From Nitrososphaerota archaeon (GTDB lineage: Archaea > Thermoproteota > Nitrososphaeria > Nitrososphaerales > Nitrosopumilaceae), in NCBI GenBank assembly GCA_028867755.1, contig JAGWFT010000002.1, positions 64,001 to 128,000 of the forward strand: a stretch of DNA of 64,000 nucleotides, written 5' to 3'. How positions within the stretch are numbered: the stretch's first letter is position 1; every line of letters starts with the position of its first letter. The position numbers and the translations under genes are program-made. A model generated the notes under the pieces. That model was not told where the DNA came from, searched no databases, and worked only from the letters and a program-made list of their open reading frames with translations. Shown here in pieces: positions 35,969 to 48,069 of this stretch.

Positions 35969-37084
35969 CTAGTCAAACAGGAACTTGTCTACTTGGTCTT
36001 TTGCTTTTTCTCTCTTCTTTTTGAAATCTGCAATGAAAGGTTTAGTGGCATCCTTGAGGTTGCATTTGCACTCTCCGCAAAGAAGCTCGCCGCCCTTGCA
36101 TTTTCTTGCCCTCTCGTCTGATTCTTTTTCCATGTCAAAAAAGTATCTTAGGTACCAAAATACCGGACATATGTTGAAATTAGCTCCAAGTTTTCGCTGT
36201 AGCTCAACAGTAGGCTGGCCTCCAGTAAATGTATTTGAGATCTTTTTGTCTATTGCCTCTTCGGTGTCTGTTGTAAATATTGCAGTCTCTGGAATCGAAG
36301 ATGACATCTTTCCTTGCATTCCAAGCCCCGGCAAGAACTTGGAGTGGATCTGAGTTGGCTTTGTGTATCCCATCTTTTCTGCAATGTCTCTTGTGACACG
36401 CCAGTATGGATCCTGGTCTATTGCTGCAGGTATGAGAACTGGAGTTGGCTTGCCCTCGATGACAGATGGAAGAAAACATGGTGCAGCCTGGATTGGCGGA
36501 AAACCTATCATTCCTATGTTTGTAGAGTTTTGAAATCCAAATACTGCCTTTACTGTTGAAAACGTTATGCGCTTTGCTATCTCAAGTGCTATTGGGTAAA
36601 TTCTCTTGATGTCCTTTGTATCGACTAGAATCTTTGTCTTTTTTGGATCAAAGCCCACTGCAATTATATCGTAAATGTTCTCTGTGGTATACCCAGATAC
36701 ATCCTTGAATGATTTCTCATCATTGTACAGAAACTTTTCATCGTCGGTAATTTGGAAGATCAAGTTTACATCAAATTTTTCTTGCAAGTATTTGGTAAAT
36801 ATCCATGGAAGCAAGTGCCCCATGTGAATTGAACCTGAAGGTCCTCTGCCTGTATACAGATAGAACTTGTTGCCTTTTTCATACTCTGTCAAAACTTTGT
36901 CAAAATCTCTATGGCTGAAAAAATATCCAAGCTTTAGCATCGGGTGAATCTCGCCTGTTATCTTTTTTACGCGTGCCTGAAGCTCATCTGAAATTTTCTC
37001 TGTGCCAAATTTCTGTATTAATTTGTCATAATCAATATCGCCTTCTACGCTCCAAGGTGTGACCGTAAAATCCTCAGACGACAT
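35969..37084 (-). CDS. trpS: Tryptophan--tRNA ligase (archaeal/eukaryotic type)
   Basis: YTGRGPSGSIHMGH, IDQDPYWR and KMSSS. Confidence 0.97.
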   Translation of the reverse strand: MSSEDFTVTPWSVEGDIDYDKLIQKFGTEKISDELQARVKKITGEIHPMLKLGYFFSHRDFDKVLTEYEKGNKFYLYTGRGPSGSIHMGHLLPWIFTKYLQEKFDVNLIFQITDDEKFLYNDEKSFKDVSGYTTENIYDIIAVGFDPKKTKILVDTKDIKRIYPIALEIAKRITFSTVKAVFGFQNSTNIGMIGFPPIQAAPCFLPSVIEGKPTPVLIPAAIDQDPYWRVTRDIAEKMGYTKPTQIHSKFLPGLGMQGKMSSSIPETAIFTTDTEEAIDKKISNTFTGGQPTVELQRKLGANFNICPVFWYLRYFFDMEKESDERARKCKGGELLCGECKCNLKDATKPFIADFKKKREKAKDQVDKFLFD

Positions 37085-37106
37085 TCATGTTTCAGTTAGG
37101 TTAAGG

Positions 37107-37120
37107 TTTAAAAAGTCTTT
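37107..37120 (+). repeat. attL core (also the trpS TATA box on the minus strand)
   Basis: TTTAAAAAGTCTTT, identical to 49249-49262. Confidence 0.8.
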
Positions 37121-37169
37121 ACGGGATGGAACATTAGGGTTTAAAATTACTGTATTCCATAACTATGAT

Positions 37170-38270
37170 ATGGATAGAAGTTTAACAAGATTTTTTGCAG
37201 GTATCAGAACAGAAACGACAAGAGAAATTTATGATAGGTATCTTAGGTATTTTCTAAACTTTGTAAAAATAAAAGAGGCTAACGGATTGTTGCAACTCAA
37301 AGACTCTTACCTTCAAACTATGGTAGAAGATTACATCATACATCTGAAAGGTAGGGGCTTACGCAAATCCTCGATTGACGGGCAAATTTCAGCATTAGAG
37401 TTATTCTTTGCTATGAATGACAAGATATTGAATTTCAAGAAAATTCGCAAGATGTCGCCTATTCAACTAAAGATACAGGGAAACGGCTCTTACACAACAG
37501 ATGACATTAAGCGTATGTTAGAGGCTACCACATCGTTAAGAAACAAGGCTATAATTCACTGCCTTGCGAGTTTGGGTTGTCGCCCTAATGCGTTCTGCGA
37601 TCCGCCGTTAAGATTGAGGCATCTAAAAGAGGTCAAGGATGGATATTATTCAGTTCTAATGTACGAAGGCAGTGTCGAGGAATACAGAGGATACCTTACA
37701 AAAGAGGCTTCGATTTTGGTGAAAATGTATATGAACGAGAGGTCAAGGCAAGGCGAAGTAATTACACCTGATAGTCCACTCTTTCGAAATCTGTATCGTG
37801 TGGTCTTGTCTAAAGCCAAGCCTATGACCATAAAAGGAATCAAGTCCATGATTTTAGAAATTCTCAAAAAGATGCGGGGCAAAGGCAAGAAGAGAGGAGA
37901 GAGGTATGATACTGCGATGATTGGAGGGTTTAGACATCGCTACATCGAGATATGTGCAAAAAACAGGCTAGATGTTAGGTTAGCGGAGAGATTGGTATCA
38001 CATACACCAAAGAGCGCACCGATGGACAAGCATTATGTAAATATCAATAACATACAGGATGAACTCTTTAACGAGTTTTTAAGAATTGAAAGAGATCTTA
38101 CTATCTCAAAAGAAGAGAAGGAACGACTTGGAAGAATTGAAGCGGAGAAGAAAGTTACAGAACTTGAAAATGATAAAGATAAACGTATCTCGGAATTAGA
38201 AGCACAGGCAACAGAGACAAGAGATATGATTAAGGGCATTTATGCTCTCTTGGGAAGAGACACGACTTAG
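37170..38270 (+). CDS. Tyrosine recombinase/integrase
   Basis: SAM-like N-terminus; LGCRPNA (R), GGFRH (HxxR position with H replaced by G), LVSH, KHY (Y); coiled-coil tail. In-frame ATG at 37170. Confidence 0.9.
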   Translation: MDRSLTRFFAGIRTETTREIYDRYLRYFLNFVKIKEANGLLQLKDSYLQTMVEDYIIHLKGRGLRKSSIDGQISALELFFAMNDKILNFKKIRKMSPIQLKIQGNGSYTTDDIKRMLEATTSLRNKAIIHCLASLGCRPNAFCDPPLRLRHLKEVKDGYYSVLMYEGSVEEYRGYLTKEASILVKMYMNERSRQGEVITPDSPLFRNLYRVVLSKAKPMTIKGIKSMILEILKKMRGKGKKRGERYDTAMIGGFRHRYIEICAKNRLDVRLAERLVSHTPKSAPMDKHYVNINNIQDELFNEFLRIERDLTISKEEKERLGRIEAEKKVTELENDKDKRISELEAQATETRDMIKGIYALLGRDTT

Positions 38271-39025
38271 TTGTTTTTTTTAAATTTATTATAAAGAAAT
38301 TTTGTTTGTTGATTTACATTCTTTACTGTTTTTTTGTCATAAGGTGAACCTATCAATGCATTTAGTTTTTTGTAAAGTTGTTTATCAAACCCATATTTTT
38401 CTGCAAACTTGAAATTAAGCCTTATCATGCCTTCGGCAAATCTCACTTCAGAACTATCCGTGACTTTTTTTGAAAAACCATCTATCATGTTTTTTTGATT
38501 TAATTTAGATAATTCATTTAGAAGATTAAAGATATATGGTGCTGAGATTTCTGCTTTCTGAGACGGTGTAAACTTTGGATTGTCGTAAACCTCGAATCTG
38601 AGTAATTTTTTGGCATCGTTTGCAATACTTGGGGTTTTAACAAAACCATCGTCATCAAGGCTAATTTTGAAATAATAACGTGGATGTTTTGACTCTGGAT
38701 TAATTTTCTTAAGTTTGTTGTGTTTGCGAGCATGTAGCAAAACATCACGCAAGCTTGAATCGGAAAGCCCCGTACCCTTTTTAATTTCTGAATGAGTTGA
38801 TTCCCCATGTATGGCTAGGTAATCTGAAACAAGACACCAGTTTAGAACTTCATCTTTTTGCATCAAAGGTCTAATGAATTCGCTCCATTTGTGAGATTTG
38901 ATGGCTTCTGCAATTTCTCCCAAAATTAATTCACTAACGATATGCAATAAAGATGTTTTAACTCTTATGAAAAATTCGTAACATAATGTCATGTTGTAAC
39001 AGCATGTGCATGTGATGTACAACAT
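38267..39025 (-). CDS. wHTH DNA-binding protein (start uncertain, probably shorter)
   Basis: LAIHGESTHSEIKKGTGLSDSSLRDVLLHARKHNKLKK...PRYY winged-helix pattern. Confidence 0.65.
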   Translation of the reverse strand: MLYITCTCCYNMTLCYEFFIRVKTSLLHIVSELILGEIAEAIKSHKWSEFIRPLMQKDEVLNWCLVSDYLAIHGESTHSEIKKGTGLSDSSLRDVLLHARKHNKLKKINPESKHPRYYFKISLDDDGFVKTPSIANDAKKLLRFEVYDNPKFTPSQKAEISAPYIFNLLNELSKLNQKNMIDGFSKKVTDSSEVRFAEGMIRLNFKFAEKYGFDKQLYKKLNALIGSPYDKKTVKNVNQQTKFLYNKFKKNN

Positions 39026-39073
39026 AGGTCTGAAATGTTATGGTGTTATTAATTTGAAAAATATCGATTAAAC

Positions 39074-39391
39074 ATGGCAACAACTAGTATTGTATTCTGT
39101 CCTTGTGGATGTGGACTTGAGATAGACAAAGTTCCACTAATTGAGATTCTATCACATGCTAGAAAAGCCTGTCAGAAAATATTAGGAGAATGGAAAATGC
39201 AAAATGAAACAAAAACAAGTTGGCAATACGGTGTAGCCTTCAACAAAATACAATCCTTCTTTCAAAGAAAGGCTACTTGTCCGTTAGCTGACTGCAAACA
39301 GTATGTTGAGGCACACACAATGATAGAGTGCGTTCAGCACTTGAAGAGTTACCTCAACTCAATTGAATTGGAAGGTGGGCAACCAAAATGA
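39074..39391 (+). CDS. Cys/His-rich, probably Zn-binding, hypothetical protein
   Basis: CPCGCG and CPLADC...H...C...H. Confidence 0.65.
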   Translation: MATTSIVFCPCGCGLEIDKVPLIEILSHARKACQKILGEWKMQNETKTSWQYGVAFNKIQSFFQRKATCPLADCKQYVEAHTMIECVQHLKSYLNSIELEGGQPK

Positions 39392-39900
39392 AAACTATTA
39401 GTGTTGTTGCTCTAATCTCAATTCTACCATTTATTTTTTTTACAAATAACGCAAACGCCTACGTTGAAAACATCCAACTACAAGACCAATCTGGAAATAT
39501 GGTTGCTGTTGGATTGGATAATCCAAGTATAACTGCAATTGAACAGGGTTGGGTTTATGGTTCTGTGCAGACAAGCAATACCCAAGTTGTTCAGAATACA
39601 GGTATGTCGGACTTTGTTTCGCAGATAAAGCCGACACCACTTGGTTCAGAAGTTGACTTTGCTGGAAAGTTGGACAGCACAGCCACTATCAGACTTGTAG
39701 ACAATTCTGGGCAAAGTTGGAGTCTGATCTTGGAACCACAAGTGGGGAAGAAGACTAGCCAAGATGCAAGCAGTGGTAGTATGCCAAGTGTTACAGATGT
39801 CCCATACTACGTCTATGGGATAGTGGGACTGATTGGTGTTGGAACAATCCTACTAATCAGAAGGAGGAAGAGGGAAATTGGTGAAATCAGCAGAGTCTAA
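39388..39900 (+). CDS. Surface protein with a signal peptide and C-terminal TM anchor
   Basis: N-terminal signal ending ANA; C-terminal YYVYGIVGLIGVGTILLI-RRRKR. Confidence 0.7.
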   Translation: MKTISVVALISILPFIFFTNNANAYVENIQLQDQSGNMVAVGLDNPSITAIEQGWVYGSVQTSNTQVVQNTGMSDFVSQIKPTPLGSEVDFAGKLDSTATIRLVDNSGQSWSLILEPQVGKKTSQDASSGSMPSVTDVPYYVYGIVGLIGVGTILLIRRRKREIGEISRV

Positions 39901-40891
39901 ATTTTTCACCGATCCTTTTCAACTGGCTAGCATCGGTATTGTAGCTGTTGGAGATACTGCCTGTAAACAGGCGGAGCAGTTCAGCAAGATACTGCACAAA
40001 CATGAAGCAATATACCAAGTCGGAGTAGTGGCATTAGTCAAAATCTCTACCGAAGTCTACGAAGATGCAAAACAAATAGCAAAACGTTTTCCAAAAAAAG
40101 AAAGACACAAGGTAGTTGGAATCTGTGCCAAGAACACCACACTGATTCGGGAGTTGGAAAAGTCTGAAGAGTTTGCAGAGAGCAAGCGAGGAGTCTGGCT
40201 ACCGAAACTAAAAGACGGCATAGACAGGATCGTAGAACTTCTTGAAACGCATCAGGTAAGCATAGTCGTTGTCTATCTTGGTAGCGGAGGTCATGCAACA
40301 CTGGGCAGGGAACTCATAACCATTCTCAAGGAAAGATATACGGGCGTTCACTTTGTCGTGGTTTTATGCAAACCATATCACGACAAGTTGTGTGAACCCA
40401 TCTACAAAAACAACCAAAAATTTGTCGTAAAAGGTGGAACTCTCAGTGTAATCTTTGAGAGTGAACTCGTAGAGAACTCGTTTGAAGCAAAAGACATTGA
40501 AAACAACACGAGTCTGTTTGCACTTCTCAACGAGAGAAAGACAGCCACTAACAAGTCTGCACCAGATATGCTGAGATTGATGGAGGCACACAAGCAATAT
40601 GTCATCAAGACCGCAGTGCGAAGCAATCCGATTTATCGCAAGCAGGGACTACTATGGGATACAACAAACAATCACAGAGATGTTACAACCGACACAATCG
40701 TGAGAGGAATCAAAGAAATCGGGATATGTCAAGACTGCCTGTATGTAATATCTGGAAGGACAACAGATGGGCAAATCAAGAATGGAATAATGCAAATCGG
40801 CAAAGGTGGCAAGGGCTTTGATCTAAACTACAGGTTACTGCCAACTGAAAAAAACGACACTCTGCTCATTGGGAAGTTTGAGCCATGCTGA
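39878..40891 (+). CDS. Highly divergent tubulin/FtsZ-superfamily GTPase-like protein
   Basis: T1-like IGIVAVGDTACK, T4-like VVVYLGSGGHATLG, VVVLCKPY, and T7-like NKSAPDMLRLM, in the correct order and spacing. Confidence 0.65.
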   Translation: MVKSAESKFFTDPFQLASIGIVAVGDTACKQAEQFSKILHKHEAIYQVGVVALVKISTEVYEDAKQIAKRFPKKERHKVVGICAKNTTLIRELEKSEEFAESKRGVWLPKLKDGIDRIVELLETHQVSIVVVYLGSGGHATLGRELITILKERYTGVHFVVVLCKPYHDKLCEPIYKNNQKFVVKGGTLSVIFESELVENSFEAKDIENNTSLFALLNERKTATNKSAPDMLRLMEAHKQYVIKTAVRSNPIYRKQGLLWDTTNNHRDVTTDTIVRGIKEIGICQDCLYVISGRTTDGQIKNGIMQIGKGGKGFDLNYRLLPTEKNDTLLIGKFEPC

Positions 40892-41002
40892 CCTATCATT
40901 TTTTATTTATTTCTGTGTATACTATTATTGGTAGATTAAATCAGACACATACCAAGAGATATTCATTATGCCAAATGGCTTGCTACCATTTCTGCACTGA
41001 TT

Positions 41003-42787
41003 TTGTTAGTGTATCTGCATTACTGGTTTGTTGCTGTAGTGATTGGTGGTAGTATTATGGGTTGGAAATTCTGGCAGACAAGAGAAGAATATGATAACTA
41101 TCTTGAAGGTGTCATAAGGCGAGTCGAAAACAAAGGCTTGCATAACTTCTTGCAGGTAGTAGCTGATCCCGTACATCCAAAAGGATTCAACATAATAGAT
41201 GAAACGTTAGGTCAACTAAATCAGAACATTCTCATAAATGGTTCTGCAAGAAGTGGAAAAACATGGCTTGGAATGTATCTTTGTTTAAAATTACCACATA
41301 GGAAAATCATTCTCTCTTTCAAAAAATTTCAGAGTAATAATAGAGACTTTGATATTGGTTACAAGTGGATAGACGTATCACAGTTTTTCCCAAACTTGTT
41401 CGCTGACGGGCAAAGTTTTTGTGAGGCATTTCGTTGCGCTTTCTTTAGCGATTTATCAAGTCGTGGACTTATGATCGATACGATCTTGTCTAAGGTCAAT
41501 GAAGTAATTGAGCAAGAGCCTAAGAACTTTGACGAATTCTTCAAGGCACTCGATAGAGTAGCAAAAAGTGGTCAGTGGGATGCCAACATTACAAACATTG
41601 TAAAATCAAAAGTCAAGAAATTACAGGTTGAGGGTGCAAAGCACGGCAGTATTAATTTTAGACAGGGAAACATAGTGTTAGATCTGGGAAATCTTCCAGA
41701 TGATGAGGTAAAGTCCTTTGTAGCCGAGTTATTTTTGAGACAGATAAACAGGATTGAAGAACAGGAACAAAACACAGAGAAGGTCTATGTTGTCATAGAC
41801 GAGGCTTGGCACATTCTAGCCAGCAAACAACAAAAGTCTATCATAGGAACGATGTTGCTTCAGGGTGCTTTCTATATTCAACTTATCATAATTACCCAAA
41901 ACTATACGCATCTTGATGAAGATTATCGGGGGCATTTCGGTTCTCATTTTTGCTTTAGAAATACAAACGATAAGGATTCAAAAGCGATTGAGGCTGGCTA
42001 TGGTGCGTTTGTCAGGGATGGGGTTAGACAATTACCAGATTTTTGCTATACTAATCTTAGATATCAACATGGAGAAAATATCTTACCATATTGGAAATTA
42101 AATTTTGAGAAATTGGAGAGGTTAATACAAGAAGCAAGACAGACTCATGTAGCAGAAGATAACCCACAGGCTGATTTTGTCAGTGATGGAAATAATGTTT
42201 GGAAGGATGGAGAAGAAAAGAAGAAGGATGAAACAAAAGAGAAGGAAAATTTGGAAGAGAGGGCTATTGACGTTCTCAAAAAAAGTGAGGTGGCTATGTA
42301 TGGATATGAACTTGGCAAGGCAGTTGGCGTTAAACCAAAAGATGTAACTACCAGAAGGAAAATTCTAAGAAAACTTTTAGAAGACAATAAAATAAAAGAA
42401 TGGATTTGTCAAATACGAAATGAAGAAGTTTCATACTACTACCTGATTAACGATGGTCGTGATGTATGCCATAATCTTATGACAAGAGAGACAAAGAAAA
42501 AGTTTGGAGACTGGAAGATTATTTTCGAGGCATCGCAGGGAACAGGAGGCGCAGATTTTGTAATACTACGAGAGAAAGATGGAAAGAAAATTGCCATCGA
42601 GTGTGAAACTAGTTTAAAGAAGGACGCCTCGGATCTGCGTGAAAGGATTGAAAAGAACCTTGCAGATGGAATTGACACAATAATTATGAGTCCTACAGAA
42701 GCGGTCAGAGAAAACTATTCTGCTTTGTTTGAGTGCAAATGCTGTCTTATTTCTGAATTGGAGATATTGAAGAATTGGAAAAAGTAA
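41003..42787 (+). CDS. Membrane-anchored HerA/VirD4/FtsK-like ATPase fused to wHTH and PD-(D/E)XK domains (start uncertain)
   Basis: N-terminal TM; Walker A GSARSGKT; Walker B VVIDEAW; IIITQN; then a wHTH (YGYELGKAVG...RKILRKLLEDNKI) and GGADFV...IAIECET. Confidence 0.8.
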   Translation: MLVYLHYWFVAVVIGGSIMGWKFWQTREEYDNYLEGVIRRVENKGLHNFLQVVADPVHPKGFNIIDETLGQLNQNILINGSARSGKTWLGMYLCLKLPHRKIILSFKKFQSNNRDFDIGYKWIDVSQFFPNLFADGQSFCEAFRCAFFSDLSSRGLMIDTILSKVNEVIEQEPKNFDEFFKALDRVAKSGQWDANITNIVKSKVKKLQVEGAKHGSINFRQGNIVLDLGNLPDDEVKSFVAELFLRQINRIEEQEQNTEKVYVVIDEAWHILASKQQKSIIGTMLLQGAFYIQLIIITQNYTHLDEDYRGHFGSHFCFRNTNDKDSKAIEAGYGAFVRDGVRQLPDFCYTNLRYQHGENILPYWKLNFEKLERLIQEARQTHVAEDNPQADFVSDGNNVWKDGEEKKKDETKEKENLEERAIDVLKKSEVAMYGYELGKAVGVKPKDVTTRRKILRKLLEDNKIKEWICQIRNEEVSYYYLINDGRDVCHNLMTRETKKKFGDWKIIFEASQGTGGADFVILREKDGKKIAIECETSLKKDASDLRERIEKNLADGIDTIIMSPTEAVRENYSALFECKCCLISELEILKNWKK

Positions 42788-43680
42788 AAATTCCTAGAGA
42801 CTGGTCTAGAGTCAGGGATGCCATAGTCAGCCGTATTCTGGGGTTTACTACAACATCAGCTAATGCAAAACCATATCGAGACAAAAAGGGAGACTTGGTT
42901 ATACCGATGGGTCACGACGGGGCTTGGCTGATTATATGCATGATGCTCTCAACTCTCATTTTTGCTGGCATCTTTCGTATATCTGGGATGAGTCTTGCAG
43001 AAACGCAGACAGAGTTTCCAAAGTATGATGCTGAGTGGATTTTTCTTATAATGGTCTTATTCCTTTTGCCAAGAATAGTTTTCAGAGGAATTTTAGGCTA
43101 TAGAGATATCCCTAAAGGTTGGACAAGAGAACAGGCTGAGGCTTTTTTTAATTTACAAGGAGCGAGGTCAAGGTGGAAAAGCCTTCTAGAAGAGGTGCTT
43201 GCATGGTTTCCTCTGATAACTTGTTTTAAAATAATTAACAATGTTGGCAAACAAGTTGGTGGTAAGGATTGGAAATTTGGCAGGTGGCTAGTAACTGTTT
43301 TTGCGTGGATGGTTGGATATTATGCATTTTTTAGACTGGTGTTTTGGGTTGAATCTTATGTAAAAGACGCAACGTTAAGCACGTTACTTCCAATAAGTGC
43401 GATAGTCTTTGCTATCATAGCACCTATAGTTTATGCAAGGAAAAAATATCTCACACATTTCAAGAATAACAAAAGATCTCTTGTTGAAGCCTATATGGAA
43501 ATAAAACATGGAAGGCGATGGAGAGTGTGGCTTTATGCATTTATTGGCGTTGGATTGTGCGGTGTTCCCTTGATGATGTATTTTGGGATTGACAAATTAT
43601 TATTTAGCGTGCCAGCCTATTTTGGATTACTTGTTTTCTGTGCATTGAAAGGCAGAGGAAAGTTAAGAAGAAAAAACTAG
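42775..43680 (+). CDS. Multi-pass membrane protein
   Basis: About six hydrophobic segments; overlaps the ATPase stop. Confidence 0.75.
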   Translation: MEKVKIPRDWSRVRDAIVSRILGFTTTSANAKPYRDKKGDLVIPMGHDGAWLIICMMLSTLIFAGIFRISGMSLAETQTEFPKYDAEWIFLIMVLFLLPRIVFRGILGYRDIPKGWTREQAEAFFNLQGARSRWKSLLEEVLAWFPLITCFKIINNVGKQVGGKDWKFGRWLVTVFAWMVGYYAFFRLVFWVESYVKDATLSTLLPISAIVFAIIAPIVYARKKYLTHFKNNKRSLVEAYMEIKHGRRWRVWLYAFIGVGLCGVPLMMYFGIDKLLFSVPAYFGLLVFCALKGRGKLRRKN

Positions 43681-43754
43681 TATCTTTTACTTGAAGTGTA
43701 GAACCCAGAGCGAGGCTTCTTAGATGTTGTGTTTCTAAATAATATTGTGATGAA

Positions 43755-44174
43755 ATGGAAAATGAAACACCACAGATTGAGGAGAGGTATAGGAGACTAT
43801 ACAGAAGTTATGAAACAGAAGACAAGAAAAGGTCTTACGACCTGTTTGTAAGACAGGACAAGAGCAGGACAACGGTATCAACCATACAGAGCGAGAAGAT
43901 CGCAGAAGGCGAGGAAAAATCAATCTCTGTATTTCTCCGAGAAGAGAACCACATAATCTCTATTGAGGTCTGGACGGGCTTTGTAGGTGATGTTCTCAAA
44001 AAGTACGAGCGTCAGTATACTGGACGAGTGGATTATGACATTGGAGCTCTCTTTATGAGCGAGATATACGACAACGCACTACGCATCAACAGCAGGACGC
44101 CATCGGTTGCAAAGGTCTCGGAAAAAATAATAGACTTTGCAAAAATGCACAGGGAGAAGCAGAAATCATTATGA
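43755..44174 (+). CDS. Hypothetical protein
   Basis: 139-aa charged ORF within the element operon. Confidence 0.65.
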   Translation: MENETPQIEERYRRLYRSYETEDKKRSYDLFVRQDKSRTTVSTIQSEKIAEGEEKSISVFLREENHIISIEVWTGFVGDVLKKYERQYTGRVDYDIGALFMSEIYDNALRINSRTPSVAKVSEKIIDFAKMHREKQKSL

Positions 44175-44175
44175 A

Positions 44176-44415
44176 ATGCGACAGAAAAATAGACAAATCA
44201 AGTATGCACTTGTGTTACTACAAGTTGGTCTTTTAGCAAGTGCATTTTTTCTTTTCTTTGGTCTAGTGGCGATGATGCTATATCTAATTGGTGAAATTAG
44301 CATCGCTGAGATTGTTGATTATTTGCTACTTTCTACTACGTGGGAGAGTGTGGGAATAACATTTTTTGAAGGTTTGATATGGATTGCGTTTAAGAAAAAT
44401 AGGTCGAAAAAATGA
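44176..44415 (+). CDS. 79-aa two-TM small protein (pilin-like size)
   Basis: MRQKNRQIKYALVLLQVGLLASAFFLFFGLVAMMLYLIG...GITFFEGLIWIAFKK; in-frame ATG at 44176. Confidence 0.55.
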   Translation: MRQKNRQIKYALVLLQVGLLASAFFLFFGLVAMMLYLIGEISIAEIVDYLLLSTTWESVGITFFEGLIWIAFKKNRSKK

Positions 44416-44726
44416 TAGACAATATATTGAATTTCCTACTTGGATTGATTGATGGTACTTATGATAATGATGAAGATGTGAATGAAAAACTAAAGGTGAT
44501 TGAACGAGAAAAATTAAAGAGTTTAAAAAGAAAATAGATCCACGATCCTGCAAGCATAAGATGCTTGTCTATTATCGGAGAAGGTATGGAAATGTAGTAT
44601 GGGAGTTCTGGCGTTGCCTTGATTGTAAAAAAATAGTTCGCAAGGCAATATGGAATGTAAAGAATTTCTTTGGTTAAATGGTAGGTGTGTGGGCTTACTC
44701 TTTATTCGACCCACACGGAGAGTAAC

Positions 44727-45005
44727 TTACTTTGTTTTGTCTGGTTCTTTTCTTAGAAGGTGCTGATATGGGCTAGGGCGGTACATTGTTACTACCCCAT
44801 GACGAATCATGTCGTCCATTATTTCGCTGTCCTTCAAAGGACGCTGGCAAAGTCTACAATAGACTCTGTACGTCCAATATGGTCTTCTATTTTCATAGAA
44901 GGTTCTTGGTTTGTTGTTTTCCATTTCCGTTACCTCGCCTAGTTTCTTAGGCAGTATTATTACTATAATCCTGCACTTTAAGTTATCTTCAAAAACAAAT
45001 GTCAT
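44727..45005 (-). CDS. Small hypothetical protein with a CxxC motif
   Basis: YRVYCRLCQRPL; the true start is probably the internal MENNK. Confidence 0.45.
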   Translation of the reverse strand: MTFVFEDNLKCRIIVIILPKKLGEVTEMENNKPRTFYENRRPYWTYRVYCRLCQRPLKDSEIMDDMIRHGVVTMYRPSPYQHLLRKEPDKTK

Positions 45006-45093
45006 TGTAATGAAAATGAGCGAAGCCTAAAGACGACCAGTTTTATCATAACCTTAAATCTCTCAAATTATCGAATAAAATAAGAGAATTCGT

Positions 45094-48069
45094 ATGGATC
45101 TAACAAAAGAAAATCTGCATGTTATCATCAGCGAATTTAGAGAATGGTTCAAGGGCAATGATGGTCAGAGGCATTTCAATAACATAGAGAAGGAAAAACA
45201 AGATGTAAAGGATCTCATGAAAAAACTAAAACCAATGGATAAGAACTCGCCAGAGTTCGTTGACTGGGTTCTATATGGGTTGCTACCTTATTTTAAAACA
45301 AAATTTGCAAAACGTGTTAGTACATTTCCCGTATTTCTAAACATAAAACTCTTCCTTAAAAATCGTAACGAGGAAGATTGGACAATATTGGCGAATATGA
45401 TATATGATCTTGCTCACAATTTTCAAGAAACGCCCAATAAGTTAGATATCTGGATTAAAGATTTTATTTCTGACAAAGCTCGTAGTAGAATGATTCAGTG
45501 TGGCACAATATCTCCGATAATATTTTGTATCAACGAATCGTTCCCAGTAGTGAATAACAGGGTCAGACATACCTACAATGAATTTGCAACTGTTTTTGGT
45601 TGGAATGATATCATGTCTCAGAAATTAGAACACTATTTGGACAATGTAAAAAAATGTCAGAAACTTATTGATGCATTAGGTGTTGAAGAACTTAGAAATC
45701 TTACCATTTTTGATGAATTCTGTTATTGGTATGATTATATTTACAAAGGAGAAAACGATGAGGAAGAAGAAACTGAATCTGATGTTGAGGTAAAGACAAG
45801 AGCTGAGGAAGTTAATCTTCCAATGTTTCTTGAGTCTGCACAATTAAGTAATCTAGCTAAATTTGAACCGCATTCGCTACGTAATCCAGAGAGAATCAAA
45901 ATCGACCAGATTATTTCTAATGCTTCTAACGGTAAATGGGTTCTACCAAATTTTCAAAGATATTTTGATTGGAAGAAGAACGATGTCAAGGAATTACTAA
46001 AATCAATATTCAACGATTATTATGTAGGAGCACTTCTTCTGTGGGATGTCGGAAAAGAACCAGAATTAGATCCTATGCCCATCATGGGTGTGGATATTAG
46101 AAAGGACGAACTCAAACCAAATTCTATCATTTTAGACGGGCAACAAAGGATTACATCGCTTTATTACGCACTGAGAGCGCCTAATTTTCCATTGCGGGGT
46201 AGTAGCGCACCTCTCTATTTTTACATTAACTTTTCTGAATTTTTTAATCAAAATGAGTCGAGTGACATTATAGAAATATTACCGAGAAAATTGGGCAGAG
46301 ATGAATCTTTTAAAAAAAGACTGTTTCCATTCTATGAATTAGAGAAGTATTCTGAATGGGTAGATGGTTTTGAAGATTTTATGTTGAAGGCTTCAACAGA
46401 CCAAGATAAGATAAGATCTATTAGGAGAATCATCGACAAAAAATTAAGGCATGTAATAGACGGTTTTGAAATTCCATATATCTCTCTTCCAGAAACAATG
46501 GAATTACCACAAGTAACCGATATTTTTGAAAAAATAAACACGATGGGAAAAGTCCTTAGCGTATTTGATCTTTTGATAGCTAGACTTAGCAAATACGAAA
46601 TAGAATTGAAAACACATTGGGAGGAATCCGTTAAGCGATTCCCTAAATTGCTTGAATATTACAAATCAATAGATAAGATACCCATTTACATCCTTCAGGC
46701 AATTTCCCTCTGCTATAATAAAACTAGTTCTTGTAAAAGAGAAGATATTCTAAATATATATCAAAATGTTTTTGAGCCTACAGATCTTTCCTTTGAGGAA
46801 ATTTGGAACGAGATGACAGAATACTTGAACAAGGGCATATTAAAAATTGAAAATCTGAGAGATGGGTTTGGTGTTAAAGACAGAAATGAGTTGCCGTTTG
46901 CTCCTATGATTCCTATACTGGCAGCCCTAACTAAGGAAATTGAATCGAGACATAACAAAGTCGACTGTTACAAAAAACTTGGCACATGGTACTGGACATC
47001 AGTCTTCTCTAATGCATACTCTGGTGCTGTTGATAGCCAGTTAACAGCAGATTTCAAGGAAATGAAAGATTGGTTCTCCGATGATACTAAGATTCCAAAA
47101 ACAGTAGATAGAGCTAGGAGAGAATTTGCCACGTTGAATCTTCGTGAAATACAATCTAAATCAAGTGCGATGTACAGAGGAGTCTTGTCACTTTTAGCGT
47201 TGGAAGGAGCTAATGACTTTAACACTAATCAAACCCTTGAGAATGCCCGAAATAACGATAAAGACCACCTGTTTCCCAAAGCTGAATTTCATTCTATGAG
47301 GAATGTAAATTCTATTTTAAACATAAGCTGGATGTCTGATGAGACCAACAGGAAGATTAAGAGATACAAGAAACCCTCCGCTTATGTCAAAGAGTTCATT
47401 AAGGAAAAATATGGCGGAAATGAAAAAGAATTTTTGAAAGTTTTGGAAAGTCATTTCATAAACAAAAATGCCTATGATTGTATGTTAAGAGATGACTTTC
47501 AGGGTTTCATTTCTGAACGCGAAAAAGTCGTTCTTGGTAAGATTAAGAATGCGATCGGTCTTGAAGGTACTGTACAAGACCACACTCTGATAACTCCAGA
47601 GCAACCATTTTCAAATCGTGTAGCTTTCTGGAATACGATAAAATCCTGTGATAGTTATATTTACTGGGTCGATAAATATTTCTCAAAGGAAGGACTCGAG
47701 CTACTCTCTCAATCATTGGATACAAACAAAACAAAAACTGTAAAGATAATCATTTCAGTTGAGAAAGCAGATGAAAAACTAAGAAGTCTCTTCAAAGACT
47801 TTAGAGAAGAGATGAAAAACAAGAATACTATCTGCGAGCTCAGGGTGATAACCGATTCTAAGTTGAAATCAAGTATACACGACAGATGGATATTGTCAAA
47901 GAACAGTTGTTTTAACATACCGTCGCCTGACACAGTAGCGAGAGGTCAGTACAGTGAAATAAAAGCCACAGAAAACAGACCTCCTTTCGATGATTGGTGG
48001 ACGAGAAGCCTCGATATAATCAACAATTGGAATGAAATTCAGAAAAGTAAAGAGATAATTTCAAAATAA
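45094..48069 (+). CDS. GmrSD-like type IV restriction protein: N-terminal domain, DUF262, HNH/DUF1524-like and PLD-like domains
   Basis: VLPNFQRYFDW and IILDGQQRITSL (DUF262); DKDHLFP...N...NRKI (HNH-like); YWVDKYF...IHDRWI (PLD-like). Confidence 0.8.
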   Translation: MDLTKENLHVIISEFREWFKGNDGQRHFNNIEKEKQDVKDLMKKLKPMDKNSPEFVDWVLYGLLPYFKTKFAKRVSTFPVFLNIKLFLKNRNEEDWTILANMIYDLAHNFQETPNKLDIWIKDFISDKARSRMIQCGTISPIIFCINESFPVVNNRVRHTYNEFATVFGWNDIMSQKLEHYLDNVKKCQKLIDALGVEELRNLTIFDEFCYWYDYIYKGENDEEEETESDVEVKTRAEEVNLPMFLESAQLSNLAKFEPHSLRNPERIKIDQIISNASNGKWVLPNFQRYFDWKKNDVKELLKSIFNDYYVGALLLWDVGKEPELDPMPIMGVDIRKDELKPNSIILDGQQRITSLYYALRAPNFPLRGSSAPLYFYINFSEFFNQNESSDIIEILPRKLGRDESFKKRLFPFYELEKYSEWVDGFEDFMLKASTDQDKIRSIRRIIDKKLRHVIDGFEIPYISLPETMELPQVTDIFEKINTMGKVLSVFDLLIARLSKYEIELKTHWEESVKRFPKLLEYYKSIDKIPIYILQAISLCYNKTSSCKREDILNIYQNVFEPTDLSFEEIWNEMTEYLNKGILKIENLRDGFGVKDRNELPFAPMIPILAALTKEIESRHNKVDCYKKLGTWYWTSVFSNAYSGAVDSQLTADFKEMKDWFSDDTKIPKTVDRARREFATLNLREIQSKSSAMYRGVLSLLALEGANDFNTNQTLENARNNDKDHLFPKAEFHSMRNVNSILNISWMSDETNRKIKRYKKPSAYVKEFIKEKYGGNEKEFLKVLESHFINKNAYDCMLRDDFQGFISEREKVVLGKIKNAIGLEGTVQDHTLITPEQPFSNRVAFWNTIKSCDSYIYWVDKYFSKEGLELLSQSLDTNKTKTVKIIISVEKADEKLRSLFKDFREEMKNKNTICELRVITDSKLKSSIHDRWILSKNSCFNIPSPDTVARGQYSEIKATENRPPFDDWWTRSLDIINNWNEIQKSKEIISK

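Follow-up and report, generated by a model that had tools for sequence, protein, structure and literature searches.

What purpose is served by a gene that joins a membrane anchor, a motor-type ATPase, a winged helix-turn-helix (wHTH) and a nuclease-like domain in one chain, inside a small integrated element of an ammonia-oxidising archaeon? The question is raised by positions 41003–42787 (forward strand) of the window, the stretch of 64,000 nucleotides from a Nitrososphaerota archaeon analysed here (assembly GCA_028867755.1, contig JAGWFT010000002.1, positions 64,001 to 128,000), where the gene lies within a 12.2-kb element inserted between trpS and pheS (37107–49263). The open reading frame (ORF) listing gives a product of 594 residues (aa) from a TTG at 41003, and this form is used for residue numbering throughout; the full coding sequence as we propose it (40940–42787, +, stop codon included; table-11 starts) opens with an ATC and encodes 615 aa. 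We infer the function of the protein from its architecture only, and interpret the gene as the DNA-handling motor of the element, encoding a membrane-docked enzyme that cuts and pumps element DNA, a reading to which we give a probability of roughly 0.4.

A previous sequence-only reading had proposed the four-part architecture of anchor, ATPase, wHTH and nuclease-like domain, and in this it was correct. The Walker motifs that it named in the ORF 41003–42787 are present, namely Walker A as GSARSGKT (aa 80–87; 41240–41263, +) and Walker B as IDEAW within VVIDEAW (D266 and E267; 41798–41803, +). The nuclease-type motif that it gave as ADFV-x(10)-IECET is there as well (GGADFV...IECET), with a spacer of 11 residues instead of 10. 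A word-based search recovered 21 relatives of 39–65% identity from Thaumarchaeota and Nitrosotalea metagenome-assembled genomes, annotated at best as "hypothetical" or "ATP-binding", and a HMMER scan of 1.8 billion cluster representatives yielded 125 clusters at E ≤1e-3, most of them 580–660 aa long and aligned from end to end. In an alignment of 51 homologues (19–65% identity) residues G80, K86, E267, Q299, H490 and D518 are invariant, D266 of Walker B is kept in 50 sequences, and E533, E535 and Y572 are kept in 48. Since this invariance persists down to 19% identity, the features are real and under selection.

The 51-sequence alignment was used to build an AlphaFold2 model, which has a mean predicted local distance difference test (pLDDT) of 90. 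In the model a helix (aa 2–26) is followed by a β-hairpin leading into a RecA-like domain (aa 30–385; 41090–42157, +), then by an acidic linker of low confidence (42158–42232, +), predicted to be disordered with pLDDT <50 at aa 398–412, and by a winged helix composed of three helices and a β wing (aa 411–481; 42233–42445, +). The RecA-like fold carries both Walker motifs, the second with its D-E pair, and a sensor glutamine, Q299 (TQN; 41897–41899, +). R309 (DYRGHFG, immediately before a strand; 41927–41929, +), found in 36 of the 51 sequences, is a candidate arginine finger whose position may be equivalent to that of the FtsK arginine finger. The N-terminal transmembrane anchor and the nucleotide-binding domain are as in type IV coupling proteins (VirD4/TrwB). 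Those proteins also carry an all-α domain within the motor; here four helices (aa 136–206) are inserted after Walker A, and the TrwB_AAD_bind model matches only three of the 51 members.

The ATPase had been described as HerA/VirD4-like, and structural comparison with VIA-align indeed places it among the DNA translocases of the FtsK-HerA superfamily. The C-domain of DndH (7es4) gave 24.5 (3.1 / 292) and that of VirB4 (4ag6) 24.2 (3.0 / 301), followed by HerA (4d2i; 23.0), TrwB (1gki; 20.6), STIV2 B204 (16.5) and FtsK (15.6); Foldseek agrees on these matches. Sequence models detect the generic core alone: Pfam AAA_10 matches at 3.6e-8, NCBIfam CedB at 7e-11 but with a score of 41 bits where the cut-off is 700, and TraC reaches 20 where it is 567. 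The nearest motors are those of the VirB4/CedB/HerA clade, represented by Thermoanaerobacter VirB4 (4ag5/4ag6), the DndH C-domain and Sulfolobus HerA. The VirB4 match is limited to the C-terminal domain (4ag6 residues 214–588), the HerA alignments begin at HerA residue 122–157, past the HAS domain, and in the model only the helix and the β-hairpin precede the motor. The alignments begin past the HAS barrel and the VirB4 N-terminal domain, and the protein is a bare motor, devoid of the accessory domains of HerA or VirB4. It also differs from this clade by the lack of a NurA partner, no NurA-like gene being found among the neighbours scanned against Pfam and NCBIfam, and by a direct N-terminal anchor and a C-terminal wHTH-nuclease, which none of VirB4, CedB, HerA and DndH possesses. 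Coupling proteins such as TrwB and VirD4 recruit a separate relaxase, whereas here the nuclease-like domain is part of the same chain; moreover, TrwB is not the closest fold match for the ATPase.

The C-terminal domain (aa 487–591; 42461–42775, +) contains H490, D518, E533-x-E535, Y572 and E585. In the model it follows the order α-β-β-β-α-β-α-β-α, of which the first six elements (helix 487–499, strands 505–509, 519–522 and 529–534, helix 543–554 and strand 558–563) form the predicted topology of the PD-(D/E)XK core, with D518 opening strand 2 and E533 and E535 located in strand 3. Motif III reads E-x-E in 48 of the 51 sequences and has the classical form D-x-K in the other three; BamHI is a known E-x-E case. 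Based on the model, the domain is nuclease-like, with a fold of the PD-(D/E)XK type and a putative nuclease activity. Structure matches in the ESM Atlas, with template modelling (TM) values of 0.66–0.77 over ~105 residues, include clusters of Mrr_cat, CoiA_nuc and other restriction endonucleases. Feature matches in the same resource, which serve as leads only, comprise AHJR-like, PDDEXK_3 and PDDEXK_11 clusters and one cluster with 12% Replic_Relax. Foldseek returned weak matches (E 1e-3 to 1e-2) to Bax1, NucS/EndoMS and FokI, which are likewise proteins with a wHTH and a nuclease domain, and VIA-align of the C-terminal model retrieved winged helices only. Among family members of 500 aa or more, 96 of 105 match a profile of the nuclease-like domain, and neither sequence nor profile searches detected a stand-alone wHTH-nuclease module. 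The two halves of the protein give discordant identities: with the homologue at locus L051 the motor shares 26% of its residues and the C-terminal half 54%, with that at L002 60% and 31%. Judging from these identities, the halves recombine at the acidic linker.

At the 11 loci compared the position of the ATPase gene is constant, and at 10 of them a tyrosine integrase lies within ~4 kb, in the order integrase, ATPase, membrane proteins. Owing to this fixed order with the integrase, the ATPase is, as far as gene order tells, a backbone or hallmark gene of small integrative elements of Nitrososphaeria and not cargo. Of 30 genomes from the genus that were sampled, about 9 have full-length copies, as do two genomes of another family, and this patchy distribution argues for a mobile element. 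One further copy, at locus L017 (G163:C30:4615-6425) in a genome of the genus, is split, interrupted by TAG and TAA stops, and decaying. The plasmid pPO1 of Picrophilus oshimae (7.6 kb) encodes a full-length homologue, ORF1, with 27% identity over aa 73–591 (E 4e-31), in which the histidine, the aspartate and E-x-E-T-G are all kept. It has been known only by the label given by the authors of the plasmid, "FtsK-related protein, COG0433", and differs from the present protein in that it is borne by a plasmid of Thermoplasmatota, not integrated in Nitrososphaeria, and has a longer N-terminal region. pPO1 carries six ORFs and no structural genes, and has its own Orc1/Cdc6 replication gene; thus replication is not initiated by the ATPase on this plasmid. 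Additional members, annotated DUF87, are found in Nitrososphaera and Ignisphaera, and the branch as a whole comprises ~100 clusters at 50% identity from Nitrososphaeria, Thermoplasmatota and Thermoproteota.

The element also carries conserved non-coding DNA just inside its right attachment site. The segment 48744–49150 is shared by every one of the eight related elements with enough flank in the family to which the element of the window belongs (Nitrosotalea type, f1); no match was found in L052 and L053, which belong to another family (f3). Two blocks stand out within it, both of them candidate cis sites without assigned strand. Block 1 (48746–48797) is a hairpin found in seven related elements, with 94% identity in L002; the outer stem does not vary, nor do the C-rich internal loops, and the inner stem shows covariation (GTCC/GGAC, GTCAC/GTGAC). 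Block 2 (49107–49149) is 98% identical in L002 and L008. For comparison, the ATPases of L002 and L008 are 38–49% identical to that of the window, and across the elements in which the blocks are 94–98% identical the ATPases share 38–55% and the proteins in general 30–55%. Rfam gave no match over 48000–49350. The two blocks are, as their conservation and position beside the right attachment site suggest, the likeliest candidates for a recognition or cut site of the enzyme. A stretch without long ORF, 48207–48770, has matches of 82–90% identity at several loci in other Nitrosotalea genomes and also on contig C70 of the present genome, and could be a small repeat, a miniature inverted-repeat transposable element or an RNA gene.

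These features can be assembled into a mechanism in which an N-terminal hydrophobic hairpin or helix would hold the protein at the cytoplasmic face of the membrane, where the FtsK-HerA-type ATPase domains probably form a DNA-pumping ring. The winged helix would recognise the site in the element and the PD-(D/E)XK-type nuclease would nick or cut there; cutting and pumping would then drive the excised element through the membrane and away, to a recipient cell or to a membrane carrier, with the polytopic and the small membrane protein encoded downstream as a possible conduit. The data show the architecture, the conservation of residues of catalytic type, the setting in a mobile element, the synteny and the cis blocks; from this set of parts we infer ring formation, DNA specificity, nicking, the direction of transport and transfer between cells. 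We favour this cut-and-pump reading because the gene occupies a backbone position, a homologue resides on a minimal plasmid, the parts were fused wherever they were found and the cis blocks are conserved. The retention of the nuclease-like domain in nearly the whole family and the absence of stand-alone copies from the searches also count for it.

If this is so, a functional analogy may lie with the MOBC relaxases (Replic_Relax, PF13814), such as TraX of pAD1. These consist of a wHTH and a domain resembling restriction endonucleases and nick the origin of transfer, oriT, without a covalent intermediate (PMC12857230). MOBC proteins and the present protein have in common a wHTH directly before a PD-(D/E)XK-type domain and the order of the motifs, which are a helix with a histidine, (P)DF, E-x-E-[LT]-[ST]-x-K and a hydrophobic strand with P-[SNT] at its end; in an alignment, MOBC proteins of enterococcal plasmids read H...PDF...E-x-E-L-T-x-K...VTPS. 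They differ by ~20 residues in the spacing between histidine and aspartate. Furthermore, MOBC relaxases are free-standing bacterial proteins of ~260 aa, whereas the present module is archaeal and was encountered only in fusion with the ATPase. The likeness to Replic_Relax-type proteins that had been noted at first is hence borne out for the layout and the motif order, and membership of PF13814 is not supported. Likewise, the suggestion of a relaxase and a coupling protein in one chain is plausible by analogy, on the strength of the layout and the D...ExE motif, and falls short of proof as no family match accompanies it. A bolder proposal, that the family supplies the DNA-processing enzyme so far missing from conjugation-like transfer in archaea, combining a MOBC-style non-covalent nickase with a membrane-docked motor in one chain whose translation is throttled by AUA/AUC initiation, we regard as doubtful; if true, a 12-kb element would move between cells with only this protein and two or three small membrane proteins.

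Several results weigh against the cut-and-pump reading and its relaxase-like component. There is no match to PF13814 in the whole genome at E ≤0.01, the NCBIfam model MobC_subf reaches E 0.04 over 20 residues, and hhalign against an alignment of MOBC proteins gives a probability of 0.1–0.3%, in a comparison of low power with just four close MOBC sequences. The profile of the nuclease-like domain found nothing significant among PDB sequences and NCBIfam, and no named nuclease family. The neighbouring membrane proteins showed no match to VirB6, CedA or pilin families in Pfam and NCBIfam scans, and many of the solved structures closest to the ATPase come from defence systems, where they partner a nuclease as HerA-type subunits. 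Finally, the two non-coding blocks are near-invariant while the wHTH-nuclease half diverges to ~30% identity, a pattern that would hardly be expected if protein and site simply co-evolved, so that the blocks may instead serve the integrase, replication or an RNA.

The structural matches just mentioned, among them DndH-C, TdpA and, from the SIR2-HerA and DUF4297-HerA systems, the HerA subunits, favour a role in defence or exclusion, in which the protein would be a single-chain analogue of HerA-nuclease systems (DUF4297-HerA, TdpAB, DndFGH) and would thread and degrade invading DNA at the membrane. PADLOC mad8 matches at 1e-8 and the element bears other defence cargo in the form of a GmrSD/HEC-05-like gene. 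We nevertheless find this role improbable, since the mad8 match spans the generic ATPase core alone, a homologue sits on a minimal plasmid, and the gene holds a fixed backbone position beside conserved membrane genes, while cargo such as GmrSD varies. To our knowledge, neither a sequence-specific wHTH nor a membrane anchor is a feature of known HerA defence systems. An export function of another kind would be terminase-like packaging, with the wHTH finding a pac-like site, the nuclease cutting and the motor loading a vesicle or virion; the particle would be virus-like, capsid-less or membrane-enveloped, and built from the secreted and membrane proteins of the element. This too is unlikely, as neither a capsid gene nor another viral hallmark was found and no relatives were recovered from 2.9 million IMG/VR contigs or 50,697 phage records. 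The pPO1 homologue belongs to a plasmid without structural genes, and ATPases of the A32/B204 type are much more distant from the present one than VirB4 and HerA are.

The presence of a tubulin/TubZ-like gene directly upstream of the ATPase in four elements brings segregation or resolution into consideration, whereby a membrane-tethered FtsK-like pump and the tubulin-like protein would position or clear excised copies when the cell divides and the nuclease would resolve multimers. The sequence of membrane anchor, motor and C-terminal wHTH is that of FtsK and SpoIIIE, and the pPO1 homologue was labelled FtsK-related by the authors of that plasmid. However, in at least four related elements the tubulin-like gene is missing and a secreted protein is found instead, FtsK needs no nuclease, and partition is unnecessary for elements that are found integrated; we consider this explanation very unlikely. 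The membrane-docked cut-and-pump enzyme thus remains the reading that we prefer.

What is new here is the combination, within the known FtsK-HerA motors and PD-(D/E)XK nucleases: no description of a four-part anchor-motor-wHTH-nuclease fusion was found in the literature searched. In the "dark-matter" islands of archaea, HerA-like ATPases are reported to rank with the most frequent genes, where they carry a generic label only; arCOG00280 is described as "possible viral DNA pumping ATPase" and arCOG06224, in a thaumarchaeal element, as "HerA helicase". The present analysis singles out one large HerA-like branch with a fixed anchor-motor-wHTH-nuclease fusion that travels with two ultra-conserved non-coding blocks, and thereby offers a concrete candidate pair of enzyme and site. 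Relaxases have been reported missing from thaumarchaeal integrative and conjugative elements and from Sulfolobus conjugative plasmids, and the fusion is a candidate for the missing DNA-processing step, at which the DNA of such elements must be chosen, opened and passed to the membrane. The protein resembles Streptomyces TraB as well as FtsK and SpoIIIE in having a membrane anchor, a motor of the FtsK-HerA superfamily and a C-terminal wHTH, which in those proteins recognises a short sequence motif. TraB by itself suffices to transfer a small actinomycete integrative and conjugative element (AICE) from cell to cell as double-stranded DNA. Should the present protein both nick and pump, it would constitute a minimal machine for DNA transfer in ammonia oxidisers of ecological importance, and could show how small archaeal elements, here in an archaeon of acid soil, handle and move DNA without a bacterial-type relaxase.

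The N-terminus deserves separate consideration. As noted previously, the frame is open and free of ATG, and we find that it contains no GTG or TTG either between 40940 and 41003, a TAA being located at 40937–40939. An indel around 40890–41000 had been suspected; an assembly error is ruled out by the identical start-less layout in four independent homologues (L001, L002, L004 and L005). In these, the 21–27 upstream codons encode the same peptide as in the window, I-R-H-x-P-R/K-D-V/I-H-Y/F-A-K/R-W/Y, and the differences are mainly synonymous third-position changes, with one K-to-R replacement altering all three bases of the codon. Because the peptide is conserved with mostly synonymous differences, 40940–41003 is coding sequence. 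The encoded segment (40940–41080, +) corresponds in the alignments to a basic N-terminal tail, IRHIPRDIHYAK, and a hydrophobic anchor of ~30 residues with a conserved central H-Y-W, which could form a hairpin and leave the ATPase in the cytoplasm. (L001 is JBOGQT010000070.1, with the coordinates of G229:C70, from a genome flagged as unpublished; the start-codon and C-terminal alignments include it beside several others and it is the sole basis of no claim, and the other flagged genomes, G363, G281, G325, G132 and G406, were used for no claim.)

All five sequences open with ATC or ATA, in the window and L002 this isoleucine codon directly follows the in-frame stop, and two more distant homologues also open with isoleucine. 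Moreover, the first isoleucine codon of the window is aligned with the ATG-encoded methionine of L051. Initiation at AUC or AUA, i.e. at the ATC at 40940, is most likely from these alignments. A purine-rich motif (GGT(A)G/AGGTG/GGCG) is seen 5 nucleotides upstream of the isoleucine codon. The TTG at 41003 is an unlikely start, as it would halve the hydrophobic anchor and lose the conserved tail. A short ATG ORF (40885–41052) overlaps the start of the ATPase gene in a +1-shifted frame, and its ATG at 40885 lies 3n+1 bases 5' of the isoleucine codon in all five sequences, as counted on the alignment. A +1 frameshift from this ORF was considered and, given that neither a slippery site nor the leader peptide is conserved and that the isoleucine aligns with the L051 ATG, is kept only as a weak, minor alternative. 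A hydrophobic segment ahead of Walker A is present in 52 of the 105 homologues of at least 500 aa; many of the others have probably been called from internal starts, like the public call for this gene. Such calls begin at internal codons and lose the membrane anchor, and the apparent AUA/AUC initiation is therefore of a second, smaller interest for gene calling in these genomes.

As for the element itself, its ends are marked by a 14-mer, TTTAAAAAGTCTTT, at attL (37107–37120) and attR (49250–49263), neither with a strand. In the insertion-free relatives L049 and L050, window position 37124 is joined directly to 49249 with a single copy of the 14-mer, from which the length of 12.2 kb follows. 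The host, like its named public relatives, is a Nitrosotalea. The gene order begins with the tyrosine integrase, a wHTH-like gene on the reverse strand, a small Cys-rich ORF and a secreted, C-terminally anchored protein, continues with the tubulin/TubZ-like gene, the ATPase, a 301-aa polytopic membrane protein and a 139-aa protein, and ends with a 92-aa two-helix membrane protein, the GmrSD/HEC-05-like defence gene and 1.2 kb of non-coding DNA. The integrase ORF is listed as 37059–38270, with a GTG start (37059) left of attL and overlapping trpS; since homologue alignments start at residue ~30–38, the true start is probably, on this evidence, the ATG near 37170, inside the element. The secreted protein (39388–39900, 170 aa) combines a signal peptide with a C-terminal anchor resembling Loki-CTERM (E 0.002, just under the cut-off), and its family, F4, is kept in four elements.

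The tubulin/TubZ-like gene (39878–40891, +; 337 aa, apparently divergent, with a GSGGHAT motif) was not detected by Pfam and NCBIfam, and in an ESM Atlas feature search its ten best named matches were all Tubulin-clan clusters, with 181–200 features in common. The copy of L051 is 74% identical, others occur in L008 and L055, and hhalign links two groups of these upstream genes (89%, E 2e-6); the secreted protein that takes its place in at least four other elements is unrelated. The polytopic membrane protein (42775–43680, +) directly follows and overlaps the ATPase stop, with homologues in the same position in L005, L008 and L051 and no match to any family in the Pfam and NCBIfam scans, and the two-helix protein (44137–44415, +; family F3) is found in five elements. 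Co-variation between the motor and the downstream membrane protein fails across pairs, and family scans recognised no type IV secretion system genes in the element. The cargo gene (45094–48069, 991 aa), with a GmrSD N-terminal domain (DUF262) and PADLOC matches to HEC-05 and PDC-M55C, probably is a type IV restriction-like defence gene and is absent from the related elements compared.

At the trpS-pheS site of L048 (G133:C1) ~870 extra bases are present where other relatives are empty, which may be the remnant of another insertion. The ~45 bases at 49225–49270, comprising attR and the pheS promoter, recur at 87–98% identity at many other places in Nitrosotalea genomes, with as many as nine matches per genome; contigs C24 and C66 of the present genome carry it too. 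The stretch may represent a shared promoter or a favoured attachment site.

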